Source of the DNA: Reclinomonas americana ATCC 50394 | Taxonomy: Eukaryota | Assembly (NCBI GenBank): GCA_048213135.1 | Contig: PS015109.1 | Location: 71,413 to 135,412, forward strand | Direction of reading: 5' to 3' | DNA: 64,000 bases | In this document: positions 1 through 44,700 of the stretch, piece after piece | Layout of the letters: the number at the start of each line of letters is the position of its first letter | How positions within the stretch are numbered: position 1 is the stretch's first letter | The notes under the pieces: generated by a model | The model's input: the letters and a program-made list of their open reading frames with translations, nothing else | Databases searched by the model: none | Told to the model about the DNA's origin: nothing | Translations under genes and position numbers: made by a program

Positions 1-3000
1 CAGTCGGCACACCCTCCACCGCCAAGAAGCCCGTGCTGAGCCACATGCCGTACTGGTTGGCCAGCATCCACTTCGGGTACTGGTAGACAGGAACCAGTGC
101 GCGCACCGGCACATACGGAGTCGCTGGCACCGGGGTGCTCAGCTTGGCCACCGCAGCAGCCAACTCGGCGAAACGCTTGGCCGACACCGCAAACGCGCCG
201 TCGCCGTCGGTGACGTACAGCCAGCCGAGCGAGTACTGCACGGCGAGAGAAGCCGCACGGTTCACGTCGGCAGCTGTTGCCGGGGCTGAGTTGACAAAGG
301 CCGCCAGGTGCTCGCGGTACTTGGAGGTGAACTGCGCCGGCTGCGTGCCAGTCACAAAGTTGGCGTACGAGTCGTCAAAGATGACGAAAATGTCGGCCGT
401 CAGCTGACTCAGGTGAGCCGGCAGCAAGCCGGCCGCCGCGTCGGCCACATTGGCAATCGACAGGTCGAGGTTCGTGGAGGTGCGCACCAGCGCAGAGAGC
501 GCCTGCAGGTACGAGACCGAGCCGGCCGCCGAGGCGTCGACGTTGTCATAGTAGACACCGAGTACGTTCCAGTTGGCATTCAGGCTGGTGATCAGCGCCT
601 GCACGTCCGACTGTGCCACCGTGTTGCCGTTCGTGTCAATGCGCACTACCAGCTTGATGCCGGCACGCACAGCCAGACGAATGGCGTGCTCCCACAGGGG
701 CGACGGCTTGGGCATGGCGGTAATGTCGGGGTTGATCACGGCAATGATCTCGGTCTCTGCGTTGCCGGCGCGGTCAATCAGCGACTGCCAGGAGGCTGAC
801 AGCGCGCCATTGGCCTGGAGAGTCGGAGCTGCGGGAGAGGGAGAAGGAGGAGTTAAGCGACGCGCTATGGAAAAGTAGAAGTACCTCTTCTCTGGTCTCA
901 CCTTCGAAGAGCGGCACGAGAATGCGGGTGACCGGAAGAATGCTGTTCACCGCCGGTGGTTGCACATTGGAGGCCGCCACATCGGCAACGAGTGCCGTCG
1001 CCAATGTGTTGTTGCCGTTGTGGGCGTCCGAGGTGACAAACACGTTGCCGATGCCAAGCTCGCGCGCCAGCGGCAGCGCATCCGACGTGGCAGTCGCAGA
1101 ACGCACCAAGGCAGCAAAGCGTGCCGGCGCGTAGTCGGCAAAGAAGCTCGGCGGCGTGTAGGACTTGAAGGTGTCGGCAGTGCCGTCAAACACGACAAAC
1201 TTGTCGGCGGTGGGATTGCGCAGGTGCGACTCGGCGAGACCCGAGGTGACTGCGTTGCCAATGACGGCGCAAGTGGCGCACGCCGTCTTGATATACGTGG
1301 TGAGCGCCAGCGCATCATCGTACGCCGCCGCAGAGGCGTCCAAGTTGTCCAAGTAGATGCCGTCCAGCGACGGAGACGCCAGCGACAGCCACGAGTCAAT
1401 GTCTTGCAGCACCAGGGTGTGGTTGCGAGCGCCGCCATTCGTGTCCACGTATCCGAGGATCGACACGCTGCCGTCGAGAGCCGCCAGCGCCGCGTTCCAG
1501 TCGGTGTTGTTGAAGAGTGCTGTCGGACCGTCGACCGGGTTCACAATGGCTGTCACAAGCGCGCCAGTCGCGGCATCAGCAGCCGCGGCCAGCGAGGTGA
1601 AGGCGTCGAGCGACACAGCCGGGTCGGCATCAATCGGCACCAACACGCTGGAGGTGAAGAACTTGCGGCTGCTGGCCAGCTTGTTGCCGTACGAGGCGTG
1701 CGCGACTTGAGCCGCCAGATGCGACGGCAGTTGCAAAAAGGCCGTACCCGAGGTCTCGCTGGTCACAAACACGTTGCCAATCTTGCGCGAGCGCGCCAGA
1801 TCGAGGGCGTGGCGCGCCTGACCAGCGTCGGCCGTCGAGTGCACAATGGCCGCGAAACGGTCCGACGCGAAGCCGTCCGCCAGACTCTGCTGCACCTGGA
1901 AGGTCTCCCAGGCGGCGGCAGTGCCCTGTTACAAAAAGAGACGGAATTTTCACCAGCAATGAGCAACAAGAAGGGAGAGAAGAGTGGACGGGGACGGTAG
2001 GGTGCGTACCGTAAACACGACGAAAATGTCGGCGGCCGGGGCGTTGAGGTGCGCCGCCGTCAGCTGCTGTCCCGACACGTCGATGGCGAGGCGCTTCAGG
2101 GTCTTGGAGTTGCGCACCGCCTCATAAATGTCGTGCAGAGCGGCGGCACTGGTAGCAGTCAGGTCGACACCGGCGAGGAAAATGCCATCAAAGTAGGCCG
2201 AGTTGTCGGCCGCCGTAATGTCGGCTGCAATGGCCGACGCCGTGCGGGTGGACGAACCGTCGACGGAGCGGAACAGCGCCACCTTGGCCGCACGCAGGTC
2301 GCGGATAGCGTCAACCTCTGCCACCGCCGGTGACATGGCCGCCGGAGTGAACGACAGCACGGCCGCGGTCGGCAGGTGAGCCGCCGCCTTGGCCACGCCC
2401 AGGAAGAAGCCGTAGGTGGCGACGGCAGACGGGGTCGGGGTGGCATTGATCGGAGCCAGCAGAGAGAGCTGGGTCGGCGGCGCAGGAGGAAGGACGGGAT
2501 TCGTGGCGGGCGGAGTGGCCAGGGCCGGTGGCACCTGGTCGTTGCACTCGGCCGGCACGGTCCACACCTTCAGGTCGGCGATTGCGGTCGAGGCCTCCTC
2601 CGCCGACGTTTGGCACACAAAGCTGTTGCCGGTGATGCTGTTGCTGACAATGGTGCAAGCGGAAGAGAGGCTCATCTTGTTCTTGACTGCCAGGTTGTTG
2701 GGGCGCGCCGAGTTGTCCTGCTTCTCAAAGAAGCCGCCCTTGATGGTCACCAACTGACCGCCATTGACGCTGCCTTGGCGCGGATAAATGTCGACCACAT
2801 CGAGCTTGGCAAAGTAGAGGATCGCCGGGTTCGGTGCAGCCGCGCCAGCAGAGCGCACGCTCAGGCCCACGTTGTAGAGGCCAGGGTTCTGCGCCGGCAG
2901 CGTGCACTTGACGACGGTTGCCGTTGCGCTCGTGACGGCACACGTGGAGGAACCAATGGTGATGACGTTATTCTCCGGGTGCACCGCATCAAAGCCGGTG

Positions 3001-6000
3001 CCGGTGAAGGTCAGCGCCGAGTCGTCGGCCGCCGAGCTCACCGCCGGCGAAATCGACGTCAGTGACGGTGTGGCGGCAGCGGTATACGAGAACGTGGAGC
3101 CCGTCGGCAGCGGCGTCGAGTTGCGGATTGTCACGTACACGGCCAGATCGGCCTGCGCGGCGCCGGTCGAGCTGGCCGGCGTCAGGCACACGAATTGCTG
3201 CAGCGACGGCGTGCCCGTCACGGTGCACTTGGGACCGGTGGTGGTGCCAATGGTGACGACAATGTCGGCCGGATTGGTGGAGAATGCCGAACCGGAAATG
3301 AGAAGCGGCGTGCCGCCGTAGATCGAGCCGGTGGACGGCGACATGGAGCCGATCGAGGCCTCATACGAGTGTGTAATGGTGCTGGTGGCAAAGCCGTAGG
3401 GAGACACCAGAACCTGCACGGTGTGCTGGCCGGCGGGCAGCGCGTTCGGGGTGACAAACGTGATGGTCACGTCGCCATTGGGGGCGACCGTGGTCGAGGT
3501 GATCTGGCACGGCACGCCACCCAACAGCACCGTATTCTCGGTGGGGTCCTCCGAGAAGGTGCCAGTGATGGTGCGCGTCTTGCCGGGGCCCGTGGTGGCC
3601 GCCGCACCCGACTCGCCAGTGCTCGTCGCCACCGGAGTGAGTGCCGGCAGGTAGCTGAACTGGCAGCTGGTGATGTCGGAGCAGGAGCCGAGCACGCCAT
3701 TGACCGTGGCGCGCACCTGCGGCACAGGCGACACCCACTCCAGCTGCTCGCTGTTGACCAGCATGAAATTGTCGAAACTGCCCTGGTATTCCTCCGTGGC
3801 CAGAGCCGAGGCCTGGAATCCTTGCTGTGCAGCGGGGAAGGAAGAAGTGGGGATGAGTGGGAGGTGAAGGTGGGAGGAGAGGAGAAGAAAAAGAAAGAGA
3901 TGCAGAAAAAGGAAGAAAACCAAGCTTCACTATCCCCTTTCACCCCTCCCGACAACTCACCAGTGTGGTACCGTCGACCGTCAGCAACTCCACGTCGCCG
4001 AGCAAGTCCTCGAAGATGATGCGATAGGTGAGGAGCTCGCGTGAGTTGCCCCACTTGCTGACGGACACGTTGCCGACGGTGCTGAGCTTGCTCTCCATGA
4101 GCACCTCCAACTGCTCCGGGCGCACGTCGTAGCTGATGCCGCTGAGCGTGTCGTCGCCAAAGGAGATGGACCAGGTGCCGGCCATGGGAGCCGACGGCGG
4201 AGATGGCTGCGAGCAGGTGCAAGTGACACCGGCAGAGAAGCTGAAGCCGCTGGCGGGACCGCACTGGAACACGGGGCGCGGGCTGTACTCGTTGACGAGG
4301 AAGGTGACCTCGATGGTGAGCAGGGCCTCGCCAGTGCTGGGATCCACAGAGGTGGCCTTGGAAACCGACACGTTGTTGACGGGCACGCCAACCACACCCG
4401 AGGGGAATTTGAGGGCCTCAATGGCCGCTTCAATGGCAGCAGTCGTCGAAGTCGGCAGAATAATCGCACTCTGCAGTCCGTCGTAGTAGAGGCGGATGCC
4501 GGTGGGATTGGTGCCGCGCACCACCACACGCTGCACCTCGCGGATGACAGTGACTTGCAGAGTGATGTCCTGCACCTCGCGGAAGTTGTCGCTGCGCGGC
4601 TGGTCCGAGGGCGAGCGGACCCACACCTTCAGGTACTCGTCGCCGTCGCCCTGCTGGTACGACACCTGTTCATAGGGAGGGGCGCAAGGGTGAGTGATGA
4701 GGGGAGGGGGAAAGGGGAAAGGGGAAAGGGGAGAAGAGAGAGGTAATGTCGAAAACGAAGTTGACAGAGATATACGGACACACACAAACACTCGTACAGA
4801 GAGCGAGAGAGAAGAGAATAAGTTCTTTTGCATCACCCTCTCTCTCTTTCTGCCCGCGCTACGCAACATCGATAAAGTAGGCTTTGGTGGCGTCCAGCGT
4901 CACCGTGGTGCGCTGACCCGTGCTGCTCAGAGGCCACGACTCGGCACCGTACGCGGTAAAGGTGGAGAGCACCGCCGACAACGGCGACTCATTCGAGTAA
5001 ATGGTCATGACGGCGTTGTCGTCGTGCTGCAGGTAGAACGTGTGCGGGCCGGATGCCAGCGGGCGGAAGATGCCGCGCACGCGAGAGGTGTAGCGCGTGG
5101 TACCGTACTGGAAGTCGAGGCTGCCGAGCCAAATGTCGTCAATGGTCGGCACGGCGTTGGCGGCCGGCAGGGTCGGTGCTGCAGCGTCGTTGGCGTACTG
5201 GTAGAACTGACGGCGCACACCGCGGCCACCCGAGTACTGCACGCCGGTCAACTGCTGCACGGACGAGAGAGGGCCGGTGCGACACACGATCTCATCATAG
5301 TCGACAGGGGTGGGGCGCGTCTGTCCGCGCGTCACCGACAGCACCGTGCACGGCGAGCCACTGACGTCGACCACCGCGTTCTCCGCGATCTTGGTGAAGC
5401 CGGATCCGTGGATGGTGAGCACGGTGCCGCCATTGGTGGAGCCAGCGGCCGGTTGCACGCTCGTAATGCGCGGCACAACGGCAAAGTCGTAGACCGTGCC
5501 CTTGCGGTTGTAGAGGACGTTGCGCGGGTTCTTGATGGCGTTGCCGTAGTTCTTGATGTTCATGTTGACGCGGTAGTAGCCGGCCTCGTTGTCTTGCACG
5601 CGGCAGCGCGGCTCGCCGTAGGTGTAGGAGCCGAGATTGTTGTTCATGTTGAGCGGCGAGTCGTGGAGACGATCCGCCGAGTTGAAAAAGTAGTTGAGAG
5701 ACCAGCCCTGCGAGACGCCGTTGGTGGTGTCGGCCAGCGGATTGTTCTGACCCATCGAGCACTGTCGGTCGCCGATGCTCATGTCGATAATGTTGTCAGG
5801 GGAGGAGGTGAAGACGCGGCCGCGGAATTTGACCAGGTCGCCAGCGGCGCCCGCCTGCGGGTGCGCGTTGTACAAAATGGGCGTGGCGCTGAAGGCGTAC
5901 TTGTATACACACATGCCGTTGGCGTCCTTGACGACGCAGTTGGCGTAGCGCTTGTGGTCGATTTGCACGAGGAGGTCCACCGGGGTCTAATAAAAGGGAA

Positions 6001-7451
6001 AGGGTGAGATGAAAGGCGGAGAAGGGGAGGGACGGAGGGAGGGAGGGAGGGGAGGAGGATGATTGAGCAGAGAGCAAAGAAGTGAAAGGAGTGACGTGCG
6101 TATTGGGAGAGTGAGTGAGTGTGTGTGTGTGTGAGAGAGAAAGAGAGAGAGAGAGTGATACTGAAACGCAACATTGGTGTCCTTGCCCGGCGGCGCCATG
6201 CAGACAATTTGGTAAAAGCTGCTGTAGTGATGCATGGCCATGCACGGCTTGCCATCGATCCACACCTCATTCTGCAGGAGACATGGGGAAAATTGAGTGC
6301 CACGAATGAGGAAGACATGACAGAGGGAGAAACACATTACGCAACTGCACCCTGGTAGGTGTCGTCGAGCGAAAAGTTGTCGCCGGCGATCGTCAGCCAC
6401 GTGCCGCCAGCAACGGAACCTATGAATTGGAAAGAGAAGGGTGAATGTCACGGAGGAAAAATGGGGGTCGAGGGGAGGCGAGAGAGACTCACCGACAGTG
6501 GGCGTAATGAGCGTAATGTGAGGGTTGATGTCCTGCAACGAGAGCACAAGGTGAGGAAAATGAAGGGGAAGAGAGCGAGAGAAAGAAGGGAGACAAGGAA
6601 GCAATCAAAGTGAATTCCACCGTGTACAATGAAATACAGCAAAGAGCGGAAACGAGTTGACGTGCGCGCAATGGAGTGCGGATCAATGAGTGCAAAGTCG
6701 ATAACAAGTGCACAAAAAGGCACAGAAAAGTAAAAGAGGATGGAGAAGAGCAAGGAAGAGAAGAGGAAGAGGAGAGAGCAACTCGGGCACGAAAGTTGCA
6801 AAATACACACATGCGCAGAAACGAGGTGTAAAGTAGAGAGAAAGACCAACAAAAAAAGTGGAGCACCACGAGAATAGCGAGAGGAGTTGAAGTCCCTCGC
6901 GTGGAGTGCGGATCCATGAATGAGTGGAATAAATCGACAACAAGAGCATCATGACCGCATGTGCGACAAAAAAAGACACAGAGACGCGCAGAGACGAATG
7001 AGTGAGAGAAGAAGAGGAAGAGGAGTGAACAACTCGCGCACAAAAAACACAAAAATGTGTGAAGCACAGAAAACAAACGCGCGCGCACACACACATAAAC
7101 AACAAAGAAAGAAAGAGAGTGAGAAGAGAGAAGAAGAGAGAAGAGCAATAAAAGGAGGGTGCACAAGTCGGAGTCGGGTGAAGGAAAATTCACCCGCGAC
7201 TCATCAATACACAATGTGCATGTCTTTTCTCTCTCTCCCTCACTCACCATTTGATCCAACTGGTCATCGCCCTTGCCGGAACCCGACACCGACAAGGCTA
7301 AAGACAAACAGAGAGAGAGAGAGAGAGTCAGTGACAAAAAAAAGTTGACTTTGTGTGTGTGTGTGTGAGTGTGTGTGTTTGTCTCACCGAGTGTGAGCAG
7401 CACCAGCAACGCTGCAACAAGCGCGACAACACGAGTTGTTGTCGTCATCAT
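1..7451 (-). CDS. Large secreted/surface protein, fibrocystin-L (PKHD1L1)-like N-terminus (TIG/IPT, PA14, further TIG domains) followed by tandem spherulin-4/GH135-like domains; multi-exon, 3' end beyond the left edge
   Basis: Signal peptide MMTTTTRVVALVAALLVLLTLG at 7451-7388. Spliced exons give TIG motifs (ITLITPTVGSVAGGTWLTIAGDNF; PRITSVQPAAGSTNGGTVLTIHGSGF; PSTGSIYGGTPLLISGSAF; PRQGSVNGGQLVTIKGGFF) and a PA14-like segment (YTSRVRGIFRPLASGPHTFYLQHDDNAV...YFIDVSYQQGDG). Spherulin-4-like motifs follow (AIVNPVDGP, ILGYVDT, LDGIYLDN, GIGNVFVT). GT-AG introns such as 829-901 and 1926-2009 keep the frame. Confidence 0.85.
6640..7080. repeat. Imperfect intronic tandem duplication (~230-250 bp unit, 2 copies)
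   Basis: GGAGTGCGGATC occurs at ~6673 and ~6903, and GAAGAGGAAGAGGAG...CAACTCG at ~6760 and ~7011. Confidence 0.7.
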
Positions 7452-8820: not shown

Positions 8821-11372
8821 CTATTGTTGTTGTTGCTGCTGCTGTTGCTGCTGCTGCTGTTGTTGTTGTCGCCACAACGCCGCCACCTCCTTCACCGACT
8901 CTGAAAATTCGCGTCGCTCCTCCAGCACGCGATCGAGCACCAATCGCTTGAGGTTCTCCCGGCCGAGCCCATACTCAAAGCCGACATAATTCTGGTGCAC
9001 AAACACCGGTGTCTCGGCCACACTCCACGGCTCCCGACGCAAGTACACCTTGGAGTTGGCAAAGAGAATGCGGTCCATGACACGCACTGTCACGCGACGC
9101 GCATTGCTACTGTCCACGCGCAGTGCATGCTCGTTGAATGCCTGCTGATCCCACTTGCGCTCGACACGCAGCGTGTCGGCCACGGCCTCCAGCAACGTCA
9201 GCGTCTCTGGCGAGGCGCGTACGAGAAAGAAGCCGGCGTTCAGCAACACGTAGTGCAGCTGTCGCTCCAGGGGGTGGTACTTGAACGGCTGCGTGGTCGA
9301 GTCGATCATGGTCCACTCGTCGAGTCCATAGGCGGTCACGTCCGACCACCCGTCGGTGCTGCACTCGATCGAGCTGTCGCGATGCAGCAGTGGGAACGGG
9401 TCGCGCAGGAACACAATGTCGGTGTCGGAGAGGAGTGGGTTGAAGCCGAGGCGCACGATGCGGGCCAGCAGCGCCCACTTGAAGGAGGAGACCATTTGGC
9501 GGCGGTCGTGATAGCCGGCCACGGAGGGGGGTTGCTGGATGGAGGGGAAAGGGAGAGAGGAGAGGAGAGGCAAAGGTTGAGAGGCTTTGTGGCAACCCCA
9601 CAATCAAGCGAAGGAAGTGGAATGCAGAGGAGGAGCGCAGCGACACATCCACCGTCAACGGCCACAGGCGAGCCATCAAGTTACGGAGGTGAGGAAGAGA
9701 CAGAAAACGTGAATGCAGAGGAGTAGCAGCACAGCGACACATCCACCGTCACGTGAGGAAAGTGATCACGATAAGAGAGACATACAACGTGAACGAAGCG
9801 GAGGAGTTGCACAGCGACACACGCAATCAACCCCACCATTGATGGCCACAGGCGAGCCATCATCAAGCGACAGAAGTGATAAGAGAGGCAGACAATGTGC
9901 ATGCCGAGAAGGAGTCGCACTGATGGCATCGTTCCACAATCGACAAGTCGCACGTCGAAGAGCAAAGTCTCTTGAAATGCACCACACTCACACTGCCAGC
10001 AGCAAGAGGTCGAAAAGCGAGAGAACGGCGCACAGAGGAGTGGGATGATCCAGGAAACGCAGCTTGAGGACCAAGACACGGTCACACACATAAGCAACAC
10101 GAGAATGGTGAGAGTGTTTGCGACGGCCTATTGCCAAACGCGCCACCATCAGATATGACAACATGAACACCAAGGTCCTCTCCCGAGGGCGCCACCATAA
10201 GTAGAACACAGCCAGCACACAATAGGATTGCAGAGTGAAGGACAGGCAGCATCCATCTATCAAGCCGTGCCACCCTCCCACGCACCACTCTCACAAATCC
10301 CACAGACTGTCGACGGCAATAGTCGGCACACGCGTCGTCCAGCGCCAGCACCATCAGGTTCTGAATGCCGGCGGTGCGTGCCGATTCGATCCACATGGGC
10401 AGCATGGGTTCGCCGCCACCGCCCCCGTGCTCGGCGCCGATAAAGTTCTTATCGGACATGGTGATCAGCACCTCCTGGTGCTCGTTGGCCACCGACTGCA
10501 ACACCGTCAGCAGGTCGGCGTCCTGCGTGCGCGAAACACGCTGTGAGGCTCATGATGTGGCACATTCATCTCCCTATGAAGCAACGCAACACCGGTCGTG
10601 TCCTTCTCGTCGACCGCCACGCACCGCGAAACGGCGCGCCGCGCTTCACTCATCGACGGCAGAGTCACCGGCTTAGCGGCCGGCAACGCCGCCGGTGTGG
10701 ACGGCGACGCAGAGATGGTGGCGCCGTCGGTGAAGACAGCCTGCATGCATGCCGCACGCGACGCAATGTCCTTGCGACCGGGTCGCACCGCCTGACAGTG
10801 CACGGCTACGGGCACCGACGCACGCGAACCCACCAGTGACTTGTCAAAGAACGATGTCGCGGTGCGGTAGCGTGACCAGGCGAGCTGCGACACCGAGAGG
10901 CGCGGATACCGTGGAAACACGGGGGAAGCCGGGCGCAGAACGGCGGCCGTCAGCGCCTCGGTTTCCACCACTTGCTGGCGAGCGAGTCGATCGCGCACCA
11001 TGCGGAGGAACTGTGTGCAGGCGGCAAAGTGAGAGTCAGGAAGAGAAGCGCAGGGACGCGAAGAGAGCGATAATGCAAAGGGAATGAGAGTGCACGCTGC
11101 AAGAGAATTGCAGTGACATGAAGGGAGCGCAGCAGTAGAACAGAGAGAATGAGAGTGCACGGTTGAAGTGATATCGAACACACACAAAGGAAAAAGCAGA
11201 GCGATATGGCTTGCTGAGCGCAACTCGACACCAAAGACACAAGCAAGCAGAGCCATCGTCTACACGATGACTTGTGCAACAGCAAGGTGACACAGAGTGA
11301 CTACTTGCTGAACGATCCAGGTAAAGTATGCACAGTTATCGCCCACTCACTCTCTCTCAAAGAAAGAGAAAC

Positions 11373-11678: not shown

Positions 11679-13234
11679 CAAGATAGAAAAGCAAATTTCT
11701 CCCTCTCAAAGAAAGAGAACTCTCTCTCTGTCAATTAATGAGAAGCGAGTCTCTCTGTCTCCAAAGAAAGAGAAGCGAGTATCTCTCTCTCATCAGGCAA
11801 GAGAAGCGACTATCTCTCTCTGTCTCTCAAAGAAAAGAGACTTCGCCTTCATGACCAGAGAGTGACGACATTCGGCGATACTATCCACTTCTCCATGTCC
11901 ACAACCAACTTCCCCCATCATCACCTTTGTCGCCCGCGGACTCGACCTCCACACCATCACTCCCGGATCGAGGTGCGTAAACCACACCTCCATGGGTGGC
12001 GTGAAGGCCGGATCCGACGTGAACTTGAACTCGGGTCGCGCCGCCTCCGCCGTGTGCGACGAGCTCACCACACGCAAGTCCACACTCATGTCGCCGTCGG
12101 CCGACGCCAGCGGATTCGACAGCCACGCACAATCCGTGTCACTGTAGAACACGTGATAGCCGTGCTCCAGCAGCGCGGCGAGCGACGCATACTTGGCCAG
12201 CAGCCGTCGCTGCGTCGGATTCGCCAGCGCGCGTCCCTCTGCGCGCGATGACACTCCCAGCTGCTCCGGTGTCACATACGGCACCTTCTTGCGCCGACAG
12301 TACTCCACCGCGCTCCCATCCACCGCCACCACCAGCTGATTGGTGATGCCCACACGCTGCGTGCCCAGCAGCCAGCCCAACAACAGCGGCTCATCGTCCA
12401 CCACCGAGCGATCGGCCACCGTCACAAACAAGCGATAGTCGTTGTCTGCCGCGGCACTCAACACGTTCACCGCCGCCGCAGCGCGACCCTGCCGACGCCA
12501 CGCCTCCTCCACACTGTCCATGTGCACAAACTCGCACACCGCCGACGCCAGTACCTCAGTCAGACGACTGCGTGAGAGTGTTTCCTCCGCATCCTCACGC
12601 GCGCGACTGCCGCAGGAGGACGAGTCCTCGAATGTCCACTGTGCGCTCTCTAAGCTGCGTCGCGCCTGTCGCAGTTCCTCCACCAGGGCGAGCTCCTATA
12701 CAGAAAATGGGTGAGGGAGAAGGGAAGGGTGAACGGGAGGTACAGGGAAGGGTGCAGGGATGGATCTAGTCGTGATCAGTGGAAGGATAAGGGTACGGGT
12801 GAACGGTAGCACCAAGGGAAGGGTGAAGGAAAGGATGAGTGGAAGGGTGAACGGAAGCGCCAAGGGAAGGGTGGGTGGGAGGGATGAGTAGAAGGGTGAC
12901 TTGAAAGAGTGGAAAGGTGACTGGAAGGATAAGCGGAAGGATGAGAGTGGGCAGGTGAAGGGCAGGGTGAGTGGAATGGATGAGGGTGGAAAGGTGAAGG
13001 GAAGGATCAATAAAAGAACACGTGATCAGTGGAAGGATAGGGGAAAGGGTGAAGGGAAGGGTGAAGGGAAGGGTGAAGGGAAGAGTGAGTGGAAGGATAG
13101 GGAAGGATGAGCTCTTGTGAGTGGAGGGATGAGTGAAGCTCATCTTCATCTCCTTCTTCTTGTGCTGCAGCAGCACCTGCTGCTGTTCTCACACTTCGCC
13201 TCCCAGCTGTTCTCTGTTTCTCTGTCTCTCTCTG

Positions 13235-18940: not shown

Positions 18941-21900
18941 ATGTCTTGGCGCGACGTGGTTCTCTCCGACGAAGACGAAGACGAGGCACCGCCCTCTCGC
19001 TCACAACAACAACAACAGCAGCAAACATCACAACAGCAACAACAGGTGCACACGATGATGTCATGCATATTTTCGCGCGCACACTGCAGCAACTTGCATT
19101 CTGACTCGCTCTTGTCTCTCTCTCTCTCTCTCTCACACGCAAACTCGTGTGCATCTCTCCCTGCTCCTTGTGCATCACACTCTCATCTCACTCTCCCTTC
19201 TCTCTCATCTCTCATCTCTCTCTTGTCTCTCTCTTCCCTCCCTTCTCCTCTCTGTGTCTCTCTCTCTCTCTCACAGGGAGCCCTCACACCTCCCCCTGGC
19301 GAGCTGCGCCGACAAGGCCGCAGCATTCTCGATCTCGCCGAGGAAGACGAAGACGAAGACGATCAGCCCTCCTCCTCCCAGCCTCTCCTTCCTCCTCCTC
19401 CTCCTCCTCCAGCAGCAGCAGCTGCCCCTCTGCGCAAGAGCAGCACTGTGCAAGTAATGGAAAGCACCGAGGACGCAGGTGAAGACGAGGATGAAATCGA
19501 TGATCGTCGTCGATGGGAGCGACGAGTGAGCTCAGCTGGAGGAGACGATGAGTCGTCTGCTGTCATGCGTCGTCGTGTGTCGCGAGGGGATGCAGGGATG
19601 GAGGCTAGTGCAGGAGCAGGCGAGGAAGGGCAAGGGGGCGACGAGGGGGAAGAGGAGGACGAGTTGGCGGCGTTGGCGGCTGGGCCTCCAATGGCGGTTC
19701 CTGTGTACACGCCACTGCCGGGCCTCACGGGATGTCGCTCGGTGGATTGCTATGAGCGGCTGAATCGCATCTCGGAGGGCACGTTTGGTGTCGTATGTTG
19801 CGTGGCGTGTCACTGTTGGGCTCATGCGAGTCTTCTTCTTTTCTCTGTTGGCATTTCTTGTCTCACCTGCGTCCATCGCTCATCTTCTTCCGCGTTTCCT
19901 CTGCTCTTGTCGAGTCTACATCCTCCTCCTGCTCCGGCCTCTCTCTTCGCGCGCTCTCTCTCTCTCTCTCTCGCGATTATTTGTTTCTTTCTCTTTCTCA
20001 GTACCAGATCGTTTTCATTCTCCTTGTCGAACGCAGGTCTGCCACTCTTTTTCTCCCTGCTTCCCCCCTTTCCTTTGTCTTCCTCATTCTGTCCTCTGCG
20101 CTTCTCTCTCTCTCTCTCTCCCTCCTCTGCTTCTTTTTCTCTCTGTCCCAGATCGTTTTCATTCTCCTTGTCGAATTCTCTCCTTCCTTCATCTCATCCT
20201 CCGTCGCCTGCCACTCTCTCTCTCCCCAGTTTTCACCCTTTCTTTCTTTTTCCTCATTCTGTCGTGCGCTTCTCTCTCTCTCTCTCTCTTCTGCTTCTTT
20301 CTCTTTCTCAGTCCCAGATCGTTTTCATTCTCCTCGTCGAACGCAGGCCTGCCTGCCACTCTTTCTCTCCCTGTTTCCCCCCTTGCTTTCTCTTCCTCAT
20401 TTTGTGCTCTTCTCTCTCTTCTCTGCTTCTTTCTCTCTCTCAGTCCCAGATCTTTTTCATTCTCGTTGTCGAACTCTCTCCTTCCTTAATCTCATCCTCC
20501 GTCGCCCACGTCTCTTTCTCCCTCCCCAGTGTTCACCCTTTCTTTCTTTTTCCGCATTCTGTCCTTCCTCCGTTTCTCCCTCACTCTCTTCTCTCTCTCT
20601 CAGTCTCAGATTGTTTTCATTCTCCTTGTCGAACGCAGGCCTTCCTTCATCTCAGCCTCCATCGCCTACCTCTCTCTCTCCCTCTCCTGCTTTCTCTCTT
20701 TCTTTTTTCATACTTCAGTCCTTCCTTTGCCTCGTCCTCTTTTTTTCTATGCTCTCCCATGCTTCTCACCCGCTGTCAGAACTCCCTCCTCTCTCCGTCT
20801 CCCCTTCACCGCTCTCTGTCTTTCACTCGCTTTCTCGTCTCCTCATTCATCACGTCGTCTCCTTGTCACTCCTCTCTCCCCACTCCCTCTCCTTTTCACC
20901 TTTCAGTTTCTCACTTTGCGTGCTTCCAGATCGCGCACGCGACATTGCCACGGGTGAGATTATCGCTCTGAAGAAACTGAAACTGGAGGAGGAGAAGGAG
21001 GGTTTCCCGCTCACGGCCCTGCGAGAGATCACGCTCCTGTTGGAGATGAAGCACCCCAACATTATCGACGTGAAGGAGGTGGTGGTCGGCCGCAATCTCA
21101 ACTCCATTTTCATGGTGCGCACTTGTCTTCTCTCTCTTGCTCTCTCTCTCTCTCTGCTACCTCGTGCTCACGTAGAATGTGCTTGCGGCAGGCCATGGAA
21201 TACTGCGAACACGACATTCGCAACCTCATGGACAACATGCGTACTGGTTTCCGGCCGGCCGAAGTCAAGTGCTTGATGAAGCAGCTGTTGGAGTCCTTGG
21301 CTTTCTTGCATGAAAACTGGATATTGCATCGGTGCGTTCTCGTCTGTCTTGTGCTCGACCTCCCACACTCTCTTTCTCGCTTCTGTGCTCCCTCCTCGCC
21401 ATTTTCTCTACGCCCTGCAGGTGCATGCATAATCTCTCTCCATCTCTTTGCTGTCTGTCTTTTCTCCCTCTCTGGGTGTTTGCATCTCTCCCTCTACCTC
21501 TTCCTCTCCCTCTTCTTTTTCTTCTCTNNNNNNNNNNNNNNNNNNNNNNNNNNNNNNNNNNNNNNNNNNNNNNNNNNNNNNNNNNNNNNNNNNNNNNNNN
21601 NNNNNNNNNNNNNNNNNNNNNNNNNNNNNNNNNNNNNNNNNNNNNNNNNNNNNNNNNNNNNNNNNNNNNNNNNNNNNNNNNNNGAAGACGGAGAGGGCGA
21701 CAGAGAGAGAAGAAGAAGAAGAAGAAGAGGGAGAGGGAGAGGGAGAGGGAGAGGGAGAGGGAGAGGGAGAGGGAGAGGGCGAGGGAGACAAGGGAGAGGG
21801 TGACTGAGAGGGAGGGNNNNNNNNNNNNNNNNNNNNNNNNNNNNNNNNNNNNNNNNNNNNNNNNNNNNNNNNNNNNNNNNNNNNNNNNNNNNNNNNNNNN

Positions 21901-35700: not shown

Positions 35701-38700
35701 ACGAACAGCACAGCGCCGTCATTGCTGACGGAGACCGACTGCACTCCGTTGAGCGTCACCGCCAAACCGGCCCCGCCGTCGACCGCATCACCGGCAACGA
35801 GCAGGCGACCGGCGACAGTGTCGAGCTGACCGGTGGCCACCGTGTATCGTCGAATCAGCTGATTGCCCTGGTCTGCCACCCACACATACGTGCCTTGCGA
35901 GTCGGCTGCCACACCCGTTGGGTTGTTGAGACGCGCAGCGGCACCCAAACCATCTGCACCGCCAGCAACACCAGCAGAGCCCACCAGCGTTGTAACTGTC
36001 CAAGTGGCAATCGTGACACGACGCAGGGCGTGACTGCCCGAGTCGGCGACCCACAGCGAGCCGAGCGAGTCGCACGCCAGACCACGTGGACCGTTGAATC
36101 GCGCCAGCGCCCCGTTGCCATCCGCAACGCCGCTCGCGGTAATAATGCCCGCCACAGTGGACANNNNNNNNNNNNNNNNNNNNNNNNNNNNNNNNNNNNN
36201 NNNNNNNNNNNNNNNNNNNNNNNNNNNNNNNNNNNNNNNNNNNNNNNNNNNNNNNNNNNNNNNNNNNNNNNNNNNNNNNNNNNNNNNNNNNNNNNNNNNN
36301 NNNNNNNNNNNNNNNNNNNNNNNNNNNNNNNNNNNNNNNNNNNNNNNNNNNNNNNNNNNNNNNNNNNNNNNNNNNNNNNNNNNNNNNNNNNNNNNNNNNN
36401 NNNNNNNNNNNNNNNNNNNNNNNNNNNNNNNNNNNNNNNNNNNNNNNNNNNNNNNNNNNNNNNNNNNNNNNNNNNNNNNNNNNNNNNNNNNNNNNNNNNN
36501 NNNNNNNNNNNNNNNNNNNNNNNNNNNNNNNNNNNNNCACGAGCACTGGCCGAGCGAGAGTGGTAAACGAGGTCACGGCGCTGGCGACGCCGGAAGCGGT
36601 GTCGCGAACACGGAAGTAGTAGGTGGTGGAGGGCGACAGCGAGGCCACTGCGGCTGACACGGGGACGTCAGTGGAACCGGTGATGGCGGACCCCGAGGCC
36701 GAGACGGTGACGCCGTTGCCGGCCAGCACATCGGCCTCGCTGACGGACGAGTAGTCGAACACGGGTGTGGCGCTGCCGTTGTTCGCATTGACCGATCCAC
36801 GAAGCACAACAGAGCCGGCAAGCAGGTTCGTGACCATGCTAGTAGAGAGCACAGGAAGAGCCAACGTGGTGAACGACTGCACTGTCGACGCTTGCACCGG
36901 GTCGCTCGTCCCCACAATCGTCGCCACAATTCGGTAATAATACAGCGTCGCCGGCTGAAGACCACTAAACGCGCCGCCCACGGCCTGCGGTGATCCAGAG
37001 TTGGCGCTCACAGACGCCGGCGACGCAGTCACACTCGCAAATCCAGCTCCAACGCCCGACGTCAGCACCACCATGGTTGGCGCCACCGCGAACTGCACAC
37101 TCACCCCAAAGCCACCACTCGTGTCCACCGTGCCCGACACCGCACCAGTCGTTGCCGTCACTGTCACCGTCCCCACGGCGTCAAGCACCAGCGCCGGCAA
37201 CGCCACCGTGGTGAACGACTCCACAGATCCCGCATACACCGTCGACCCCACTGTCTCTTGCACCACCGCACGATAGTAGTACACGGTGCTCGGCAGCAGA
37301 TTGCTGGCCGTCACACTGAACGTCACATTGCTCNNNNNNNNNNNNNNNNNNNNNNNNNNNNNNNNNNNNNNNNNNNNNNNNNNNNNNNNNNNNNNNNNNN
37401 NNNNNNNNNNNNNNNNNNNNNNNNNNNNNNNNNNNNNNNNNNNNNNNNNNNNNNNNNNNNNNNNNNNNNNNNNNNNNNNNNNNNNGGCCGCTCACCGTCA
37501 CACTCTTCGTCACTGTCCCGCTCGCACTCGTCACCACCCCACCCGCCGCCACACTCGTTCCCATGCCACCAAGCAGCAGCACATCGGTTGCCGCATACTC
37601 AAAGCTGACCGACACATCGGGCCCACCCTGTGCATTCACCCCCGCCGACAGCACCACCAATGTCGCCAACTGCGACGACACCGCCATCATCGTCACCGTC
37701 GGCAGCGACGCCGTCACCTGCACAGCCGTCGCTGTGCTGGTCAACGAAATGTCGGCCACACTGACCACCAGTCGCACCGTGTACGATGTGCTTGCCGCGA
37801 GACCACTCACTGAGGTGCTGACATTGGTCGCCGGCGCCGACAACGTCACCGTCGCTGGCGTCGCAGCAATCGTCTGCGTAGACCCCGATCCACTGTTCGT
37901 CTCGTACACCTCGAACGACACACTGGCCACGTCCGCACCGTTGCTCGCCACCGTGCCGCGCAGTGTGAATGACGAGCTGGTGACCGTATCTGTGGCCAGC
38001 AGCACGAGCACTGGCCGTGCGAGAGTGGTAAACGAGGTCACGGTGCTGGCGACGCCGGAAGCGGTGTCGCGAACACGGAAGTAGTAGGTGGTGGAGGGCG
38101 ACAGCGAGGCCACTGCGGCAGACACGGGGATGTCAGTGGAACCGGTGATAACGGTCCCCGAGGCCGAGACGGTGACGCCGTTGCCGGCCAGCACATCGGC
38201 CTCGCTGACGGACGAGTAGTCGAACACGGGTGTGGCGCTGCCGTTGTTCGCATTGACCGATCCTCGAAGCACAACGGAGCCGGCAAGCAGGTTCGTCACA
38301 GTGCTGGTCGACAGGGAGGGCGGGGTGGCGGTACTCGCGCTGATCACACTGCCGTAGAGCTCGCGCAGTGTCGAGCACTGCACCACAGCACGGTACCAAA
38401 CAGTCGTGCTGGTGGGTAGACCGGAGAGTGCGGCCGAAAATGTGACCGACCCAGTCACCGTTGGCGACGCCGGCGACACTGTGGAGAATCCGCTGATGGG
38501 CGGTGTAAGAAGTCGAATGACAAAGGCTGTCGATTCTGCCACATACAACGACGGCTGCACCGAAGAACTCGGCACGAGAGCCAGGCCACGAATGCTGGTG
38601 AATCGCGCGACAGCTACCGAGGCCCCGTTGGTGACACCGGCACTTCCGTACACACCGGCCACAGTGGCCACTGATCCGTCGCGCGCAACCCGCCGCACCA

Positions 38701-41700
38701 CCGTACCGCAAGCCACATAGAGAAGCCCAGCAAAGCCATCAAAGACCATTTGCTGTGGGGTGTCGAACGTGGCGCTGGTGGAGCTACCATCTGCTCCTCC
38801 ACTGACACCGTGCTGGCCGGCAAGCACGTTGGAGAGGCCGGTGGCCGACGTCAGGTCGACCCACCGAATAACATGATTGTGTGTGTCGGAGACGTACAAC
38901 CGCTGCGACGCTGCATCCAGCGCAATACCAGACGGCGTGTCGAACTTGGGCGAGGCGCCAACGGTGAAATCGGGCGTATCGGCCACACCACTGATCGTGC
39001 GTACTGTCCCCAGTTTGTTGACGCTGCGCACCGTGTGTGCTGCGCTGTCGGTGAGGTACGCCACACCAAACTTGTCCGCGACAATTGACGACGGAGAGCG
39101 GAACGTGGCGTAATAGCCGGTGCCGTCAGCTGTGCCAGCGGCGCCGGGACGACCGGCCACAGTCGTCACCACGCCGTTTGATAAAGAAATGCGACAGATG
39201 CGTCGGTTGCCAGTGTCGGCCACCCACAATGAGTCGTCCGACGAGTCGTAGGCGACAGCCTGCGGGCCCGTAAACTGTGCGGCCGTTCCGATGCCATCGG
39301 CACGGCCTGCAGCTGTCGACGTGCCGGCCAGTACGGTCACACTGCTGGTGGCGATCTCAAATTTCCTGATGGTGTGCGCGCCCGCGTCAGCCACATAAAT
39401 GTCAGTGGACGATGCGGACATTCCCAGCGGCTGGCCAAATGTGGCGGCGACGCCGACACCACTGCCACTCCCACTGACAAGGGCCGTAAATTGTTGGCCA
39501 GCGGCGAGCGTCGTGGAGTACTCCAGCGCCGCTGCAGAGCCGGTGGTGTAGTGAAACGAGGCAGTCACCGTGCCAGCGCACGTGTTCTTCACAGCGGAGC
39601 CTTGCAACGTCAGGCCCGTCACAGTGGCGCCTGTAGCCGCCAGTGTGGAGGTCGACGGAAGCTGTGGCAGCGTCACGGTCTGCACGGCGCTGACGGTACG
39701 CGGCGCACCTGACCTGTCCGTGCGCCTGGCGGCGTACATGTACGAATAGGTGGCGCCGGGGTCGAGATCCGCCAAAGTGGACGATACAGCGGTGCTGGTG
39801 GCCGTCACACTCGCGGGACTGCTGCTCAACACACGCGCGCCACTGCCATGCATGCTCACTCGGCGCACAGCATCGACACACGACACGTAGAGAGCATTGT
39901 TTGTCGTGTCTACTGCCACACCCATCGCTGCCTGCCACGACTGCGCGGGAGCAGCAGACGGCAACGGGCCGTCGACAGCGACGCCGTACAGGGTGGTCGT
40001 CGCGCCCGTACCCATGGTAACCAGGCGAATAACGTCACCGTCGGCCACATACACAGTTCCGTACGAGTCGACAGCCACACCACGCGGCTGTACGAATTGA
40101 GCGGCGGCGCCGGTGGTAGCGTCGGTCAGTGTGCCCTTCATGGAGCTGGAACCGGCCAAGGTAGCGGCGACACCGTCAGGATAAGAGATGGCGCGCACCA
40201 CGGCACCAGCAGTCGCGGCTTCTTCGCTGACATAGAGGAGGCCAGAGAGCGCGTCGCGCACCACGCCGTAGAGCAAGTCGTAGTGTGCGACATTAGCTGG
40301 GCCGTCCGCATACTGTCCGTCAACACCACTAAACTGCACGTCCAGTCCCGTACTGACGGTGACCAGGCGCACGCCAGACGCACCGACCACCAGAACACCA
40401 TTGGAGCTGCTCGGCGACACACAGTCGGTGATGTCCAGTGACTGTGCGTCGGTCCACACGGTCGACACGGTGTACGGACTGCTTGTGACGAGGAGGCGCA
40501 GTTTGTAGCTGCCAGAGTCGACGATAAACACGTCGGTGCTGGAGAATCGCTGACACAACCCGAGTGGGTGGTCGAACTTGGCGAGAACGCCGTTGGCGTC
40601 CACCGTGCCCGCGGAAGACAGTGTGCCAGCCAGCACAGACAGAGTGCCGTCGGTGGCCAGTCGACGAATGACGTGATTGTTGGTCTCGGAAAACAACAGC
40701 GCGCCTGAGGCTTGAAGAAGTAGACCACGGACCTGCTGCAGCTGAGCCACATACGGTGCCGCATCGTCCACTGCGCCGGCCGTAGTCGAGCCGGCAATGG
40801 TCGCCACCTGCGGACCGAGCATGGCGCTATCAAACGCCGCGTACACGGACACCGCGGCGGTCGCACCGCTGGCACCCGCCGCAGACGGAACCGAGACCGT
40901 GAAGCTCGTGTGTGTCAAAGTCGGAGATGTGGGTGAGCCGAGCTCCGGCGCAGCCAGCGGTACGTAAAACATGCCGACCAGGCCGGATGGATGTGGGAAA
41001 GCCAGGCCGTCGGTCGCGTCCACCGTGTACAGCGTGTAAAACGACACACCGCCCGGCACAACCAACGAGTTCAACGCCTGAGAGCCGCTGCTTTGGGTGA
41101 CGGGAGTGGTGCTTGATACAGTGCCCAACACATAATACGACATCGCAGAAGCCGTGCTGGAAAAGTCGGCCCGTCGAATTCGTCGAATTGTGGTATCGTC
41201 GGCCACATAATTGTAGGCGGTGGTGACCGCCACACTGGTGGGCGACAACAGGTTAGCAGCGCCAATGCCACCGACTGTGCCATTGGAGCCGGCCGCCACA
41301 CGTGTGAGACCCTCCGGCTCCGTCACTCGCAACGATCGGCACGTCGAGTCGGCCGCCACCAGCCACGGAAGGCCAAATGAGGGCTCTCGAAAAAAGTCGA
41401 ATGCCAGGTCGAACACTCCGTCGGAGTAGGGCACAGCGGGGGCCAGGGACACGCCAGGCAAATTGCTGCACTGTGGCGCGCCGGCCATACCCAGCACAGT
41501 GTACACGAGTCCGTCTCGGTTGACGACACGAATCGCCGAGGTGCCAGAGGCCACGTACAGTCGGCCGGGAGCGCCAAAGAAATCAGTGAATGCCAGGCCC
41601 ATCGGCCATGTAAAGGTGGCATCTTGACGATGGCCGTCGTCGTTGCCGGGAACCATGTATTTGCCGGCCAGCAGGTCGACTAGCCCCCCAGTGACGTCGA

Positions 41701-44700
41701 TTTGTCGAATGGCATGATTGGCGGCGTCGGCCACATACAGCACGTTGGCGGTGCCATCGGTCGCCACGTCAGACGGTGAGTAGAACTTGGCCTGAGACGA
41801 GCAGCTCCCGTCGTCGTAGCCCGTAGCAGAACTCAGGTCGCCACAGAACGTGGTCACCGTGAACGGATTGGAGAGGGCGATGTGACGAATGACGTGGTTG
41901 CCAGAGTCGGCCACCCACAGCTCCGTTTCGCTGGGCGAGAGTGCCAGACCGCGTGGATTCTTGAACTGCGCTGCAAGTCCGTTTCCGTCTAGGAGATGTC
42001 CGTGACCAGTGTCACCGGCCACCGTTGTCACTGCACCCGACGACAGCATCCGTCGAATCGTATGATCCAACTCGTCGGCAATATACAGCACGCCAGTCGA
42101 TGTGGCCACCATGCCGCGTGGTCTCCGGAAGCGCGCAGTAGTGCCCACAGCGTTGTCGACGGCCACTCCCGTGTAGCCGGGCGCACCGGCCATCAACTCG
42201 ACCTTGTCGACAAACAGCTGTGGATCCGTGTATACTTGCATGGTGACGATAAATGGGGCAGCAGCGTCCGCCGCCAACGCCGTCACATCGACCTGGAACT
42301 CGGTCGACGACGGGAAGCTCACTTGCGCGGCGGTCACGGTGCCAGTCATGAGCGTGCTGAACTGCTCCACACTGGAGTAGCCGGCGGTGTTCGCGTTCGA
42401 CGCCACGATGCGATACGAGTACGTGACTCCAGCAGACAAGATGCCGGGGACAATCTGAAATGACAAAACGGTAGGCGACGACGACGTCAGCGTCAGTGGC
42501 GATGACGTTCCCTCCGGCCGCAGCGGCCGCAGCGTCAAAATCCTCCAATCGTTCGACACATAGGCCGTACCGTGAGCGTCAAAGACAAGCGACTGGGCCG
42601 CTATGTAGCCCGTGTACGTCTCCACCGTCGGTTCGACCGTGAGGTGCAGCACACGGAGACGCTGATTGTCAATCATGTACAGACTGTGGGGGTCGGTGGG
42701 GTCGACCGCCACCGCTTGTGGGTACGAGACATTGGCCACATTGAGTGGGCCATCGAGCGAGAAACCACCCGCCGCAACCACCGTCGTCACCGTTTGCGGT
42801 GCAGCGAGAGTCACTCGGCGAATGAGCGTATTGCCACTGTCGGCCACATACAGGTATGCACCTTTGACAACGATGGAGGAGGGCGAAGCGAAACGTGCGG
42901 TAGTGCCATCAGCGTCGATATAGCCCGGACTGACGTGGCCGGCAAACGACTCGACACCGCGGCCTTTCGACGGGTTCAGATCCACAGAACGGATGGCGTT
43001 ACCGTCAATAACATACAGCATTTGTGCGGCCTCGTTCACGGCCAAGTTGCCGAGGGCCGAAAACGACGCCATTGATCCGTCGGGATTGTCGAGAGAATTG
43101 GCCGTTCCGTCGCCCACAAAGATGCTAGCCGAGGCGGTGGCCACAATCACCTCATGGACGTAAATATTGACCAAGTCGCTGAGGAAGAGGCGACCGTCGG
43201 GATGCCAAACAATCCCCGTAATGGTGCTAAAGGCGGCGGCGCCACCGATTCCGGGCACCGGCGGCGACTGACAACCGCCACCAACAAAGGTCCGCGTGAA
43301 ACCGTTCGGCTGCACCTGCCTAACCCGGCATCGACCGCCATTTCCCGTGTCGACCGTGTACAGCATCTGCGTAGTGAGGTCCATTGCCATGTTGAACAAG
43401 CCATCGAACGCGGCATCCATGGCCGCCGGCGATGTGGAGTCCACGGTCCCAAACATACCCGCCCCAGCCAGAGTAGAATGCGGTCCCCTCAAGTGCTGCA
43501 CATTCGCCGCCGACTGCGCCCACAACAACTGTGCCTGCAACGAAGGCCATCCCTGCATGTCCACATTGGCGGTGACTTCGACATTCGTAGTGCCGACAAC
43601 AGTGGCCGTCGGGCTGCTGATGATGGGCGGATTGTCGAGCGTCATGACAGAACAGTCCGCTCGCGTCCAATCAAATGGAGCGTACACCATCGGCAGCGTG
43701 GACGGCGTCAATCGTGCGCGAAAGTACACGACGGTGAGCGGGACAAAGGAACTGACAGTGGCCGTAAATAGCTGAACAATATCAGGCGCGTCCTTGACGG
43801 CGGCCACCAAGGAAATGGCCGACACTGACTTTTTAGGCTTCCACACAGTGACCACATGAGTGCTCGTCGACGCAGCAACAACAGTCAGCGGAGAATAGGT
43901 CGACGATGAGAGAACCACGAAAGCGGCCGGCGGATGAGTCACAAATAGGCCGACTTGCTCGGACGTGACAGAACCAGACGGGAAAGATCCATCGGCAAAT
44001 CTGATGCGTCGAAGCGGTGCAGTCTCGTGATCCGTGTTCTGTGCGGTCAGCGGGGTTGAGGACGGTGTGTACACGAGACAAAGAGAAATCATGAGGGCCC
44101 TCTCACCGANNNNNNNNNNNNNNNNNNNNNNNNNNNNNNNNNNNNNNNNNNNNNNNNNNNNNNNNNNNNNNNNNNNNNNNNNNNNNNNNNNNNNNNNNNN
44201 NNNNNNNNNNNNNNNNNNNNNNNNNNNNNNNNNNNNNNNNNNNNNNNNNNNNNNNNNNNNNNNNNNNNNNNNNNNNNNNNNNNNNNNNNNNNNNNNNNNN
44301 NNNNNNNNNNNNNNNNNNNNNNNNNNNNNNNNNNNNNNNNNNNNNNNNNNNNNNNNNNNNNNNNNNNNNNNNNNNNNNNNNNNNNNNNNNNNNNNNNNNN
44401 NNNNNNNNNNNNNNNNNNNNNNNNNNNNNNNNNNNNNNNNNNNNNNNNNNNNNNNNNNNNNNNNNNNNNNNNNNNNNNNNNNNNNNNNNNNNNNNNNNNN
44501 NNNNNNNNNNNNNNNNNNNNNNNNNNNNNNNNNNNNNNNNNNNNNNNNNNNNNNNNNNNNNNNNNNNNNNNNNNNNNNNNNNNNNNNNNNNNNNNNNNNN
44601 NNNNNNNNNNNNNNNNNNNNNNNNNNNNNNNNNNNNNNNNNNNNNNNNNNNNNNNNNNNNNNNNNNNNNNNNNNNNNNNNNNNNNNNNNNNNNNNNNNNN

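Follow-up and report, generated by a model that had tools for sequence, protein, structure and literature searches.

A Reclinomonas americana gene with tandem, divergent spherulin-4/GH135 barrels behind a TIG stalk: candidate carbohydrate-binding modules

Introduction

Why would a protein carry several copies of a glycosidase barrel in a row behind an adhesion-type stalk, and do such copies cut their polysaccharide or hold it? This question is raised by a minus-strand gene at the edge of a 64,000-nucleotide stretch of DNA from Reclinomonas americana ATCC 50394 (GenBank assembly GCA_048213135.1, contig PS015109.1, positions 71,413 to 135,412 of the forward strand). We refer to the whole stretch as the window and give all positions in its coordinates, 1-64000. 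An initial annotation had described the gene edge as a fibrocystin-L-like scaffold fused to tandem, apparently non-catalytic spherulin-4/GH135 domains. Our analysis indicates that the fusion is real and that it joins a TIG stalk, which probably also contains a PA14 domain, to three GH135 units (U1 to U3) and the start of a fourth (U4). Moreover, our analysis suggests, with about an even chance of being right, that U1-U3 of this putatively secreted or surface protein would act mainly as non-hydrolytic carbohydrate-binding modules. The joining of a TIG/PA14 stalk to a GH135 array is new as a combination of domains, and its units are degenerate members of a family already known; it does not amount to a new kind of system.

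To our knowledge the fungal enzyme Sph3 is the only member of GH135 to have been characterised; the rest of the family, mostly bacterial, is uncharted. Sph3 is described, in the accessible text of PMC9860509, as a membrane-anchored retaining endo-alpha-1,4-N-acetylgalactosaminidase. It is against Sph3, and against the sequence relatives of the units, that we compare the array.

Results

The units were placed with a family hidden Markov model (HMM) built from 79 unrelated single-domain members and containing no sequence from the window, the unit envelopes being converted to window coordinates (Table 1). The spans given initially for the three units, ~2470-1690, ~1660-980 and ~930-140, agree with these envelopes to within ~20 bases. 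Against Pfam PF12138 (Spherulin4), which has a cut-off of 30.2 bits, U2 scores 91.5 bits (E 7.9e-26) and U3 56.8-57 bits (E 3.2e-15). For U1 the homology is carried by the family HMM, which scores the N-terminal half at 39.4 bits (HMM positions 26-176), the C-terminal part at 55.6 bits (178-258) and the two spliced together at 109.8 bits; 200 shuffles of U1 reached no more than 7.6 bits. Since the two halves fall at consecutive HMM positions and the score lies far above the shuffles, both U1 and the intron that divides it (2009-1926) are confirmed. All six motif strings quoted in the initial annotation are exact, and one of them, VVFTG, spans this same intron, so that the splicing assumed there was correct. 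The start of U4, RALVPVYQYP, was also found where it had been reported, at ~103; its 39 residues score 9.1 bits (HMM positions 27-42), whereas the shuffles reached at most 7.6 bits. A six-frame scan with the HMM found no further spherulin-4 similarity elsewhere in the window. Finally, all 30 matches returned by an Atlas feature search belong to PF12138 clusters (top score 0.93). Tandem spherulin-4/GH135 homology therefore stands, by PF12138 for U2 and U3 and by the family HMM for U1.

Table 1. Exons, two introns and spherulin-4 units of the gene, in window coordinates (i-E, independent E-value).
Feature	Position	Strand	Remarks
Exon 1	7388..7451	-	start codon 7451-7449, then hydrophobic, signal-peptide-like N-terminus
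Exon 2	7248..7297	-	GT-AG borders, frame kept
Exons 3-5	6173..6532 (6532-6493, 6419-6346, 6271-6173)	-	jointly the first TIG-like domain
Exon 6	4868..5986	-	TIG and N-terminal half of a probable PA14
Exon 7	3961..4665	-	235 residues, without family match
Exon 8	2010..3824	-	four TIG (~3668-2556), Pro-rich linker (~2537-2469), N-terminal half of U1
Intron 8	1926..2009	-	84 nt, GT..AG, interrupts U1
Exon 9	902..1925	-	end of U1, whole of U2, first strand of U3
Intron 9	829..901	-	73 nt, GT..AG, interrupts U3
Exon 10	1..828	-	
U1	1668..2480	-	split by intron 2009-1926; family HMM i-E 1.5e-32
U2	975..1655	-	PF12138 91.5 bits; family HMM i-E 1.1e-48
U3	140..944	-	split by intron 901-829; PF12138 ~57 bits; family HMM i-E 6.7e-28
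U4 start	1..103	-	RALVPVYQYP at ~103; continues past window edge

The fold of U2 points to the same family. A model of U2 that drew on 78 aligned relatives has a predicted local distance difference test score (pLDDT) of 90.1 and a predicted template modelling score (pTM) of 0.89, with eight strands alternating with helices, that is, a (beta/alpha)8 barrel. The best match of this model in the Protein Data Bank (PDB), found with Foldseek, is Aspergillus clavatus Sph3 (5d6t, E 6.6e-11, TM-score 0.82/0.74); next comes the other Sph3 entry, 5c5g (0.79/0.72), and the entry that follows has a TM-score of 0.55. The structural comparison with Sph3 proposed at the outset thus came out in favour of a TIM barrel for U2, the unit on which it was made. 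U2 and Sph3 (GH135; PDB 5C5G, 5D6T) share PF12138 as well as the fold, at 22-24% identity, and the motif positions of U2 come where strands 4 and 6 end, as they do in Sph3. At the sequence level a family profile that includes U2 reaches both 5d6t and 5c5g at E 1e-41, while a direct phmmer search of exon 9 against the PDB sequences returned no Sph3 and only a chance antibody match (E 1.2).

Do these barrels keep the residues with which Sph3 works? According to the accessible text of PMC12054363, Sph3 uses "Asp196/Glu222" as nucleophile and acid/base; we read "196" as an error for 166. In the Sph3 chain, by our own count, the Asp of GIFFDE is residue 116 and the Glu of VVFE is residue 172. These are 56 apart, which is also the spacing of D166 and E222, and so we matched the two motif residues to D166 and E222. 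We then counted residues in the corresponding columns of 161 domains, taken from the best 150 of 1002 library matches (E<=1e-3). The D166 column holds D in 159 domains and a gap in 2; U1 has A there, and U2 and U3 have D. In the E167 column the relatives have E in 125 domains, Q in 20, R, N and G in 3 each, S in 2, and others; U1 has G, and U2 and U3 have N. The E222 column is E in 147, D in 5, N in 2 and otherwise mixed, with T in U1 and D in both U2 and U3. The complete D/E/E triad is intact in 117 of the 161 domains, the other 44, including 4 that are gapped there, departing from it.

U1 has therefore lost all three acidic residues (A/G/T), and, as far as its residues tell, it cannot be an Sph3-type retaining glycosidase because neither the Asp nor the Glu is present. 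In U2 and U3 the change at the variable middle position is of a common kind, and the Asp in the E222 column is a rare one; for these two units, judged in the same way, inactivity is plausible. The early description of the units as non-catalytic accordingly holds in part: the DE and FE positions are replaced, and U1 is without all three residues, but U2 and U3 keep the catalytic Asp.

We also asked how far the rest of each domain has drifted, scoring 41 further columns that are at least 75% conserved among the relatives. U1 keeps 15 of the 41, U2 25 and U3 17. Relatives' domains with the Glu (n=137) keep 36.1 on average, with a minimum of 26, and those without it (n=12) 33.2, with a minimum of 21. 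The losses in U1-U3 include the first-strand Tyr, parts of NP.GP and of GYV.T.Y..R, the NPG motif and several aromatics. In addition to the Asp, U2 and U3 have kept GxF and a number of further family positions. The column of the first-strand Tyr is Y in 146 of 161 domains; this Tyr is absent from U1-U3 and present in U4. From its 39 residues, then, U4 may be less degenerate than U1-U3, and since its first-strand motif is nearer the family consensus, an active domain may still exist in the protein.

The gene that holds these units consists of 10 exons and 9 canonical GT-AG introns, from window position 7451 down to 1, with borders read from the sequence. Its open frames on the minus strand sit in differing phases and are united by the GT-AG introns into a spliced frame that is free of stops for 1939 codons and continues past window position 1. 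The exons are GC-rich and the introns pyrimidine-rich, no N run falls inside 1-7451, and none of the four plus-strand frames over the gene region has a Pfam match. Three of the nine introns share an unusual donor, GTTGCG (4862-4867, 6167-6172 and 6340-6345, minus strand), and the frames at these donors join in phase 0; the remaining six donors are GTGAG(T/A) or GTACGC. The N-terminus begins with a brief polar segment that leads into a long run of hydrophobic residues.

Splicing is not what ties the stalk to the barrels. A single exon, 3824-2010, encodes the TIG array, the Pro-rich linker and U1 as far as its residue 157, so that the fusion, as initially described, is independent of any splice prediction. 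We therefore regard the stalk-barrel fusion and the overall architecture as secure, with the gene structure and domain identities in place.

The stalk itself is made mainly of TIG domains. With Pfam, the frame of exon 8 (1950-3926) matches TIG in four stretches (E 3.1e-34) and the frame of exon 6 (4859-5986) in one (E 5.8e-14); on the pieces of exons 3-5 the match is weak (E 0.0079 and E 0.073). Both TIG and PF12138, which the annotation had proposed to check with HMMER, were thus matched. The third family on that list, PA14 (PF07691), did give a match, over profile positions 5-76 of 147 (E 6.7e-4), but its 19.9 bits stay below the cut-off of 24. The PA14-like region is interrupted by the intron 4867-4666, and its PDB match to PA14 has E 0.32. 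The PDB otherwise returned just the IPT domains of plexin and MET. The segment encoded by exon 7 matched no Pfam family at E<=10; an AlphaFold2 model of it made without an alignment had a pLDDT of 42.3, was unusable and was discarded. By eye, and in the secondary structure of that low-confidence model, exon 7 appears to consist of two alike halves of the form strand-strand-helix-strand-strand.

The best relatives of exon 8, in a search of proteins of 1060-3025 residues, are 12 generic TIG-array proteins at 24-33% identity, and none of the 12 carries PF12138 according to precomputed Pfam assignments, 5 of them being rescanned. When the N-terminal 1170 residues of the gene model were compared by BLASTP with 162 fetched proteins, only these TIG-array proteins (P0151-P0162) matched, and no spherulin-4 relative did. 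For exon 6 no homolog was found among proteins of 654-2000 residues, and the Atlas search gave no usable match.

Where did the array come from? In a FastTree tree of 161 domain sequences with at least 150 aligned residues, U1-U3 form an exclusive clade (support 0.945) on long branches, and their pairwise identities are low: 34.8% for U1/U2, 27.1% for U1/U3 and 29.3% for U2/U3. It is on account of this clade, its branches and these identities that we read the array as the product of old duplications within its own lineage, a conclusion drawn from the sequences. Traces of repetition in the DNA recur at spacings of 811 and 825 nt. The units are rich in Ala (19.5%) and poor in Cys.

The nearest sequence relatives of U2 are bacterial spherulin-4 proteins. 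Among 1.84 billion library representatives the closest are 31-40% identical to it, the best being P0001 (1363 residues, E 3.1e-35). Relatives of P0003, the best single-domain match, come from Planctomycetota, Verrucomicrobiota and Betaproteobacteria. Most of the bacterial domains keep D/E/E (the 117 of 161 above), unlike U1-U3. We scanned the architecture of all 65 relatives of at least 340 residues among the best 150 of the 1002 matches. All 65 carry PF12138, and 10 show two spherulin-4 stretches; none has three or more copies, and none has TIG or PA14, unlike the present protein. Their partner domains are instead RTX repeats, leucine-rich repeats, fn3, dockerin, protein kinase, GH114 and others. 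At least 5 of the 10 two-copy relatives (P0001, P0002, P0009, P0027 and P0099) have one non-canonical triad; it may be that the family repeatedly combines degenerate and canonical copies. The triads read DQV and DSE in P0001, DED and DQE in P0002, DET in P0009, DRN and DNE in P0027, and DES and DEE in P0099. In the alignment, several of the nearest bacterial single-domain relatives (P0003, P0004, P0008, P0020 and P0025) close with a short motif that includes Pro, then hydrophobic residues and finally a tail rich in Arg, which may be a PEP-CTERM-type sorting signal.

Searches of protein libraries over limited length ranges found no relative that combines a TIG stalk with a spherulin-4 array, and no identical protein or close ortholog; exon 9 likewise had no homolog among longer proteins within the limited range covered. 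Because these searches were bounded in length, the absence of a relative with the same architecture is weak evidence. A limited search of titles and abstracts found, among the papers listed, none joining spherulin with fibrocystin or PKHD1L1, and among the papers listed for GH135 or spherulin-4, likewise judged by title or abstract, neither a TIG fusion nor a protist array was found.

Discussion

How could an array of this kind be used? We propose that the gene encodes a very large glycoprotein, of more than 1939 residues, that would be secreted or held at the cell surface. In order, it would present a signal-peptide-like N-terminus, a TIG stalk with a probable PA14 domain and the 235-residue segment, the Pro-rich linker, and at least four GH135 barrels. 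The first three barrels have drifted off the catalytic consensus. U1 has no catalytic acid left; U2 and U3 keep the Asp, with the acid/base shortened from Glu to Asp and many residues of the groove lost. In this arrangement U1-U3 would provide multivalent attachment to a GalNAc-type (N-acetylgalactosamine) or related polysaccharide, and true cleavage, if any, would occur in U4 or in later units beyond the window.

Four points lead us to give this binding-module reading its even chance. U1 could not catalyse by the mechanism of Sph3. U2 and U3 are eroded beyond any Glu-bearing relative in our sample. The accessible text of bioRxiv 10.1101/113696 reports that the D166A variant of Sph3 loses hydrolysis of galactosaminogalactan (GAG) and keeps GAG binding, so that an inactive Sph3 still binds its polymer. 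Finally, tandem relatives often pair a canonical copy with a non-canonical one. The analysis itself establishes how the gene is built, which domains it encodes, how U2 folds, which residues are replaced and that the array was duplicated internally; that the protein is secreted, that it binds a glycan, which glycan this would be and that U2 and U3 are inactive is what we infer from it.

Several observations weigh against this reading. Some concern U1, whose exon pieces stay below the PF12138 cut-off (no match for the N-terminal half; 15.8 bits, E 0.011, for the C-terminal part) and whose N-terminal half matches U2 poorly in BLASTP, at E 0.001 over 17 residues. The conserved columns behind the erosion scores were defined on the 150 best matches to the U2 exon, out of 1002 matches in total. 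The case for secretion comes from reading the N-terminal hydrophobic run as a putative signal peptide, and the C-terminus of the gene, together with any transmembrane segment or GPI signal, lies beyond window position 1. U2 and U3 keep the invariant Asp. Moreover, 5 of the 161 domains from relatives naturally have an Asp where Sph3 has its acid/base Glu, and four of these 5 are well conserved in other respects, with 35-40 of the 41 columns intact. The retained Asp together with this natural variant means that activity of U2 and U3 is possible.

These last observations lead directly to the main rival, a working multi-catalytic enzyme. Here a polysaccharide would be hydrolysed or transglycosylated by U2 and U3, with the retained Asp and an Asp as acid/base, and/or canonical GH135 domains would follow from U4 onward. 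The whole would be a tethered protein that degrades exopolysaccharide or remodels a wall, with U1 as a helper. We consider this possible, though on the unlikely side. Besides the invariant Asp of U2 and U3, it can draw on the D-x-D arrangement of well-conserved relatives (35-40 of 41 columns in P0077, P0029, P0002 and P0042, 37 of 41 in P0045), on the natural variability of the middle triad position, and on the consensus first-strand motif, Tyr included, with which U4 opens. Sph3 itself is put forward as a possible transglycosylase, as a hypothesis, in the accessible text of PMC9860509. However, U2 (25 of 41) and U3 (17 of 41) lie under the minimum of 26 found in the 137 Glu-bearing domains, the NPG motif and several conserved aromatics are replaced, and U4 is seen over only 39 residues.

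A purely structural role would be a different answer to the same erosion. Spherulin is an encystment protein of Physarum, and the name might suggest a matrix or cyst-wall protein in which the barrels are stable spacers without specific glycan recognition. The heavily eroded active-site and groove positions of U1-U3, their Ala-rich and Cys-poor composition and a bead-like layout that recalls matrix proteins would all suit such spacers. Yet the U2 barrel is predicted with high confidence, and the Asp, GxF and other family positions kept in U2 and U3 argue for some constraint on the pocket. The binding of the polymer by D166A Sph3 adds that a barrel which no longer cleaves may well still bind. 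We regard the structural role as improbable. It and an artefact are less likely than either binding modules or an enzyme, and the artefact, be it a pseudogene, an assembly error or the fusion of two adjacent genes in our reading, is very improbable indeed, for although the draft sequence of the window contains 14 N runs and no close ortholog or identical protein turned up in the protein libraries, the frame is stop-free for 1939 codons over 9 canonical introns, the gene contains no N run, its domains run on across introns at consecutive profile positions, and the TIG array shares an exon with U1.

Returning to binding modules as the preferred reading, how does the protein compare with systems already described? 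In Sph3 a single domain sits on a transmembrane anchor, according to the accessible texts of PMC9860509 and PMC11356417, whereas here at least four tandem copies follow a TIG/PA14 stalk. Of the Sph3 residues, the equivalent of D166 is retained in U2 and U3, and the equivalents of E167 and E222 are N and D there.

GH18 chitinase-like lectins are pseudo-glycosidase barrels that have lost the acid/base and bind instead of cleaving. The mechanism would be the same as that proposed for U1-U3, by analogy, although those lectins belong to another glycoside hydrolase family and are single domains.

The comparison with fibrocystin-L, made in the initial annotation, can be kept only in a weaker form. 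PKHD1L1 has a signal peptide, IPT/TIG domains, PA14 near the N-terminus and more TIG after it. The N-terminal IPT/TIG array is common to fibrocystin-L/fibrocystin and the present protein; the PA14 match here stays sub-threshold. On the other hand, no Pfam match to G8 or PbH1 in any exon frame, and no TMEM2-like region, was found in the 1939 residues, in which GH135 barrels follow the TIG domains instead. Nor was any fibrocystin-specific similarity found when exon 6 was searched against proteins of 654-2000 residues and exon 8 against those of 1060-3025, PKHD1L1-sized proteins lying outside both ranges. PKHD1L1 has 14 IPT domains plus other domains (PMC11043200, accessible text). We therefore suggest that "fibrocystin-L-like" is better toned down to "TIG/PA14 stalk".

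A more specific form of the binding reading can be imagined, in which a protist lineage would have taken over the GH135 barrel as a lectin-like pseudoenzyme, and the internally duplicated array of catalytically silent barrels on its TIG/PA14 stalk would be a multivalent receptor or adhesin for microbial exopolysaccharides of the alpha-1,4-GalNAc type (GAG/Pel-like). We put this forward as a tentative idea and think it doubtful in that full form. If it were true, the receptor or adhesin could capture prey or biofilm, and it would be the first non-catalytic use of GH135, as well as the first such use in a non-fungal eukaryote.

Even short of this, diverged GH135 copies on an adhesion-type stalk would show the reuse of a fold, probably for binding over cutting. 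The natural D-N-D and A-G-T variants would be test material for separating the residues needed in GH135 catalysis from those needed in binding. Moreover, should GalNAc-rich biofilm polymers prove to be ligands of the units, exopolysaccharides of the GAG/Pel type could be probed with them. At present the protein stands as a domain-architecture curiosity with an inferred function.

Other features of the window

Across positions 1-64000 there are 14 N runs with 3870 bases in total. Scans for tRNA and for Rfam families found none in the window, and Pfam matches at E<=1e-5 are few outside the gene, in 5 of 92 long frames. Just upstream of the gene and on the same strand, the frames 8824-9603 (-) and 11796-12695 (-) match PF03407 (Nucleotid_trans, a transferase family acting on nucleotide-diphospho-sugars) at E 3.6e-27 and 2.8e-11. 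By these matches they would be one or two glycosyltransferase genes adjoining a glycan-related protein. Farther away, a fragment of a protein kinase is weakly matched at 19756-21273 (+), under the cut-off (PF00069, E 1.6e-6). A frame at 37181-47331 (-) is stop-free for 3303 codons, partly owing to the N runs 37334-37485, 44110-44845 and 45453-45989; adjoining it, NHL repeats are matched at 46738-47331 (E 1.1e-12), and the region may encode another large repeat protein.

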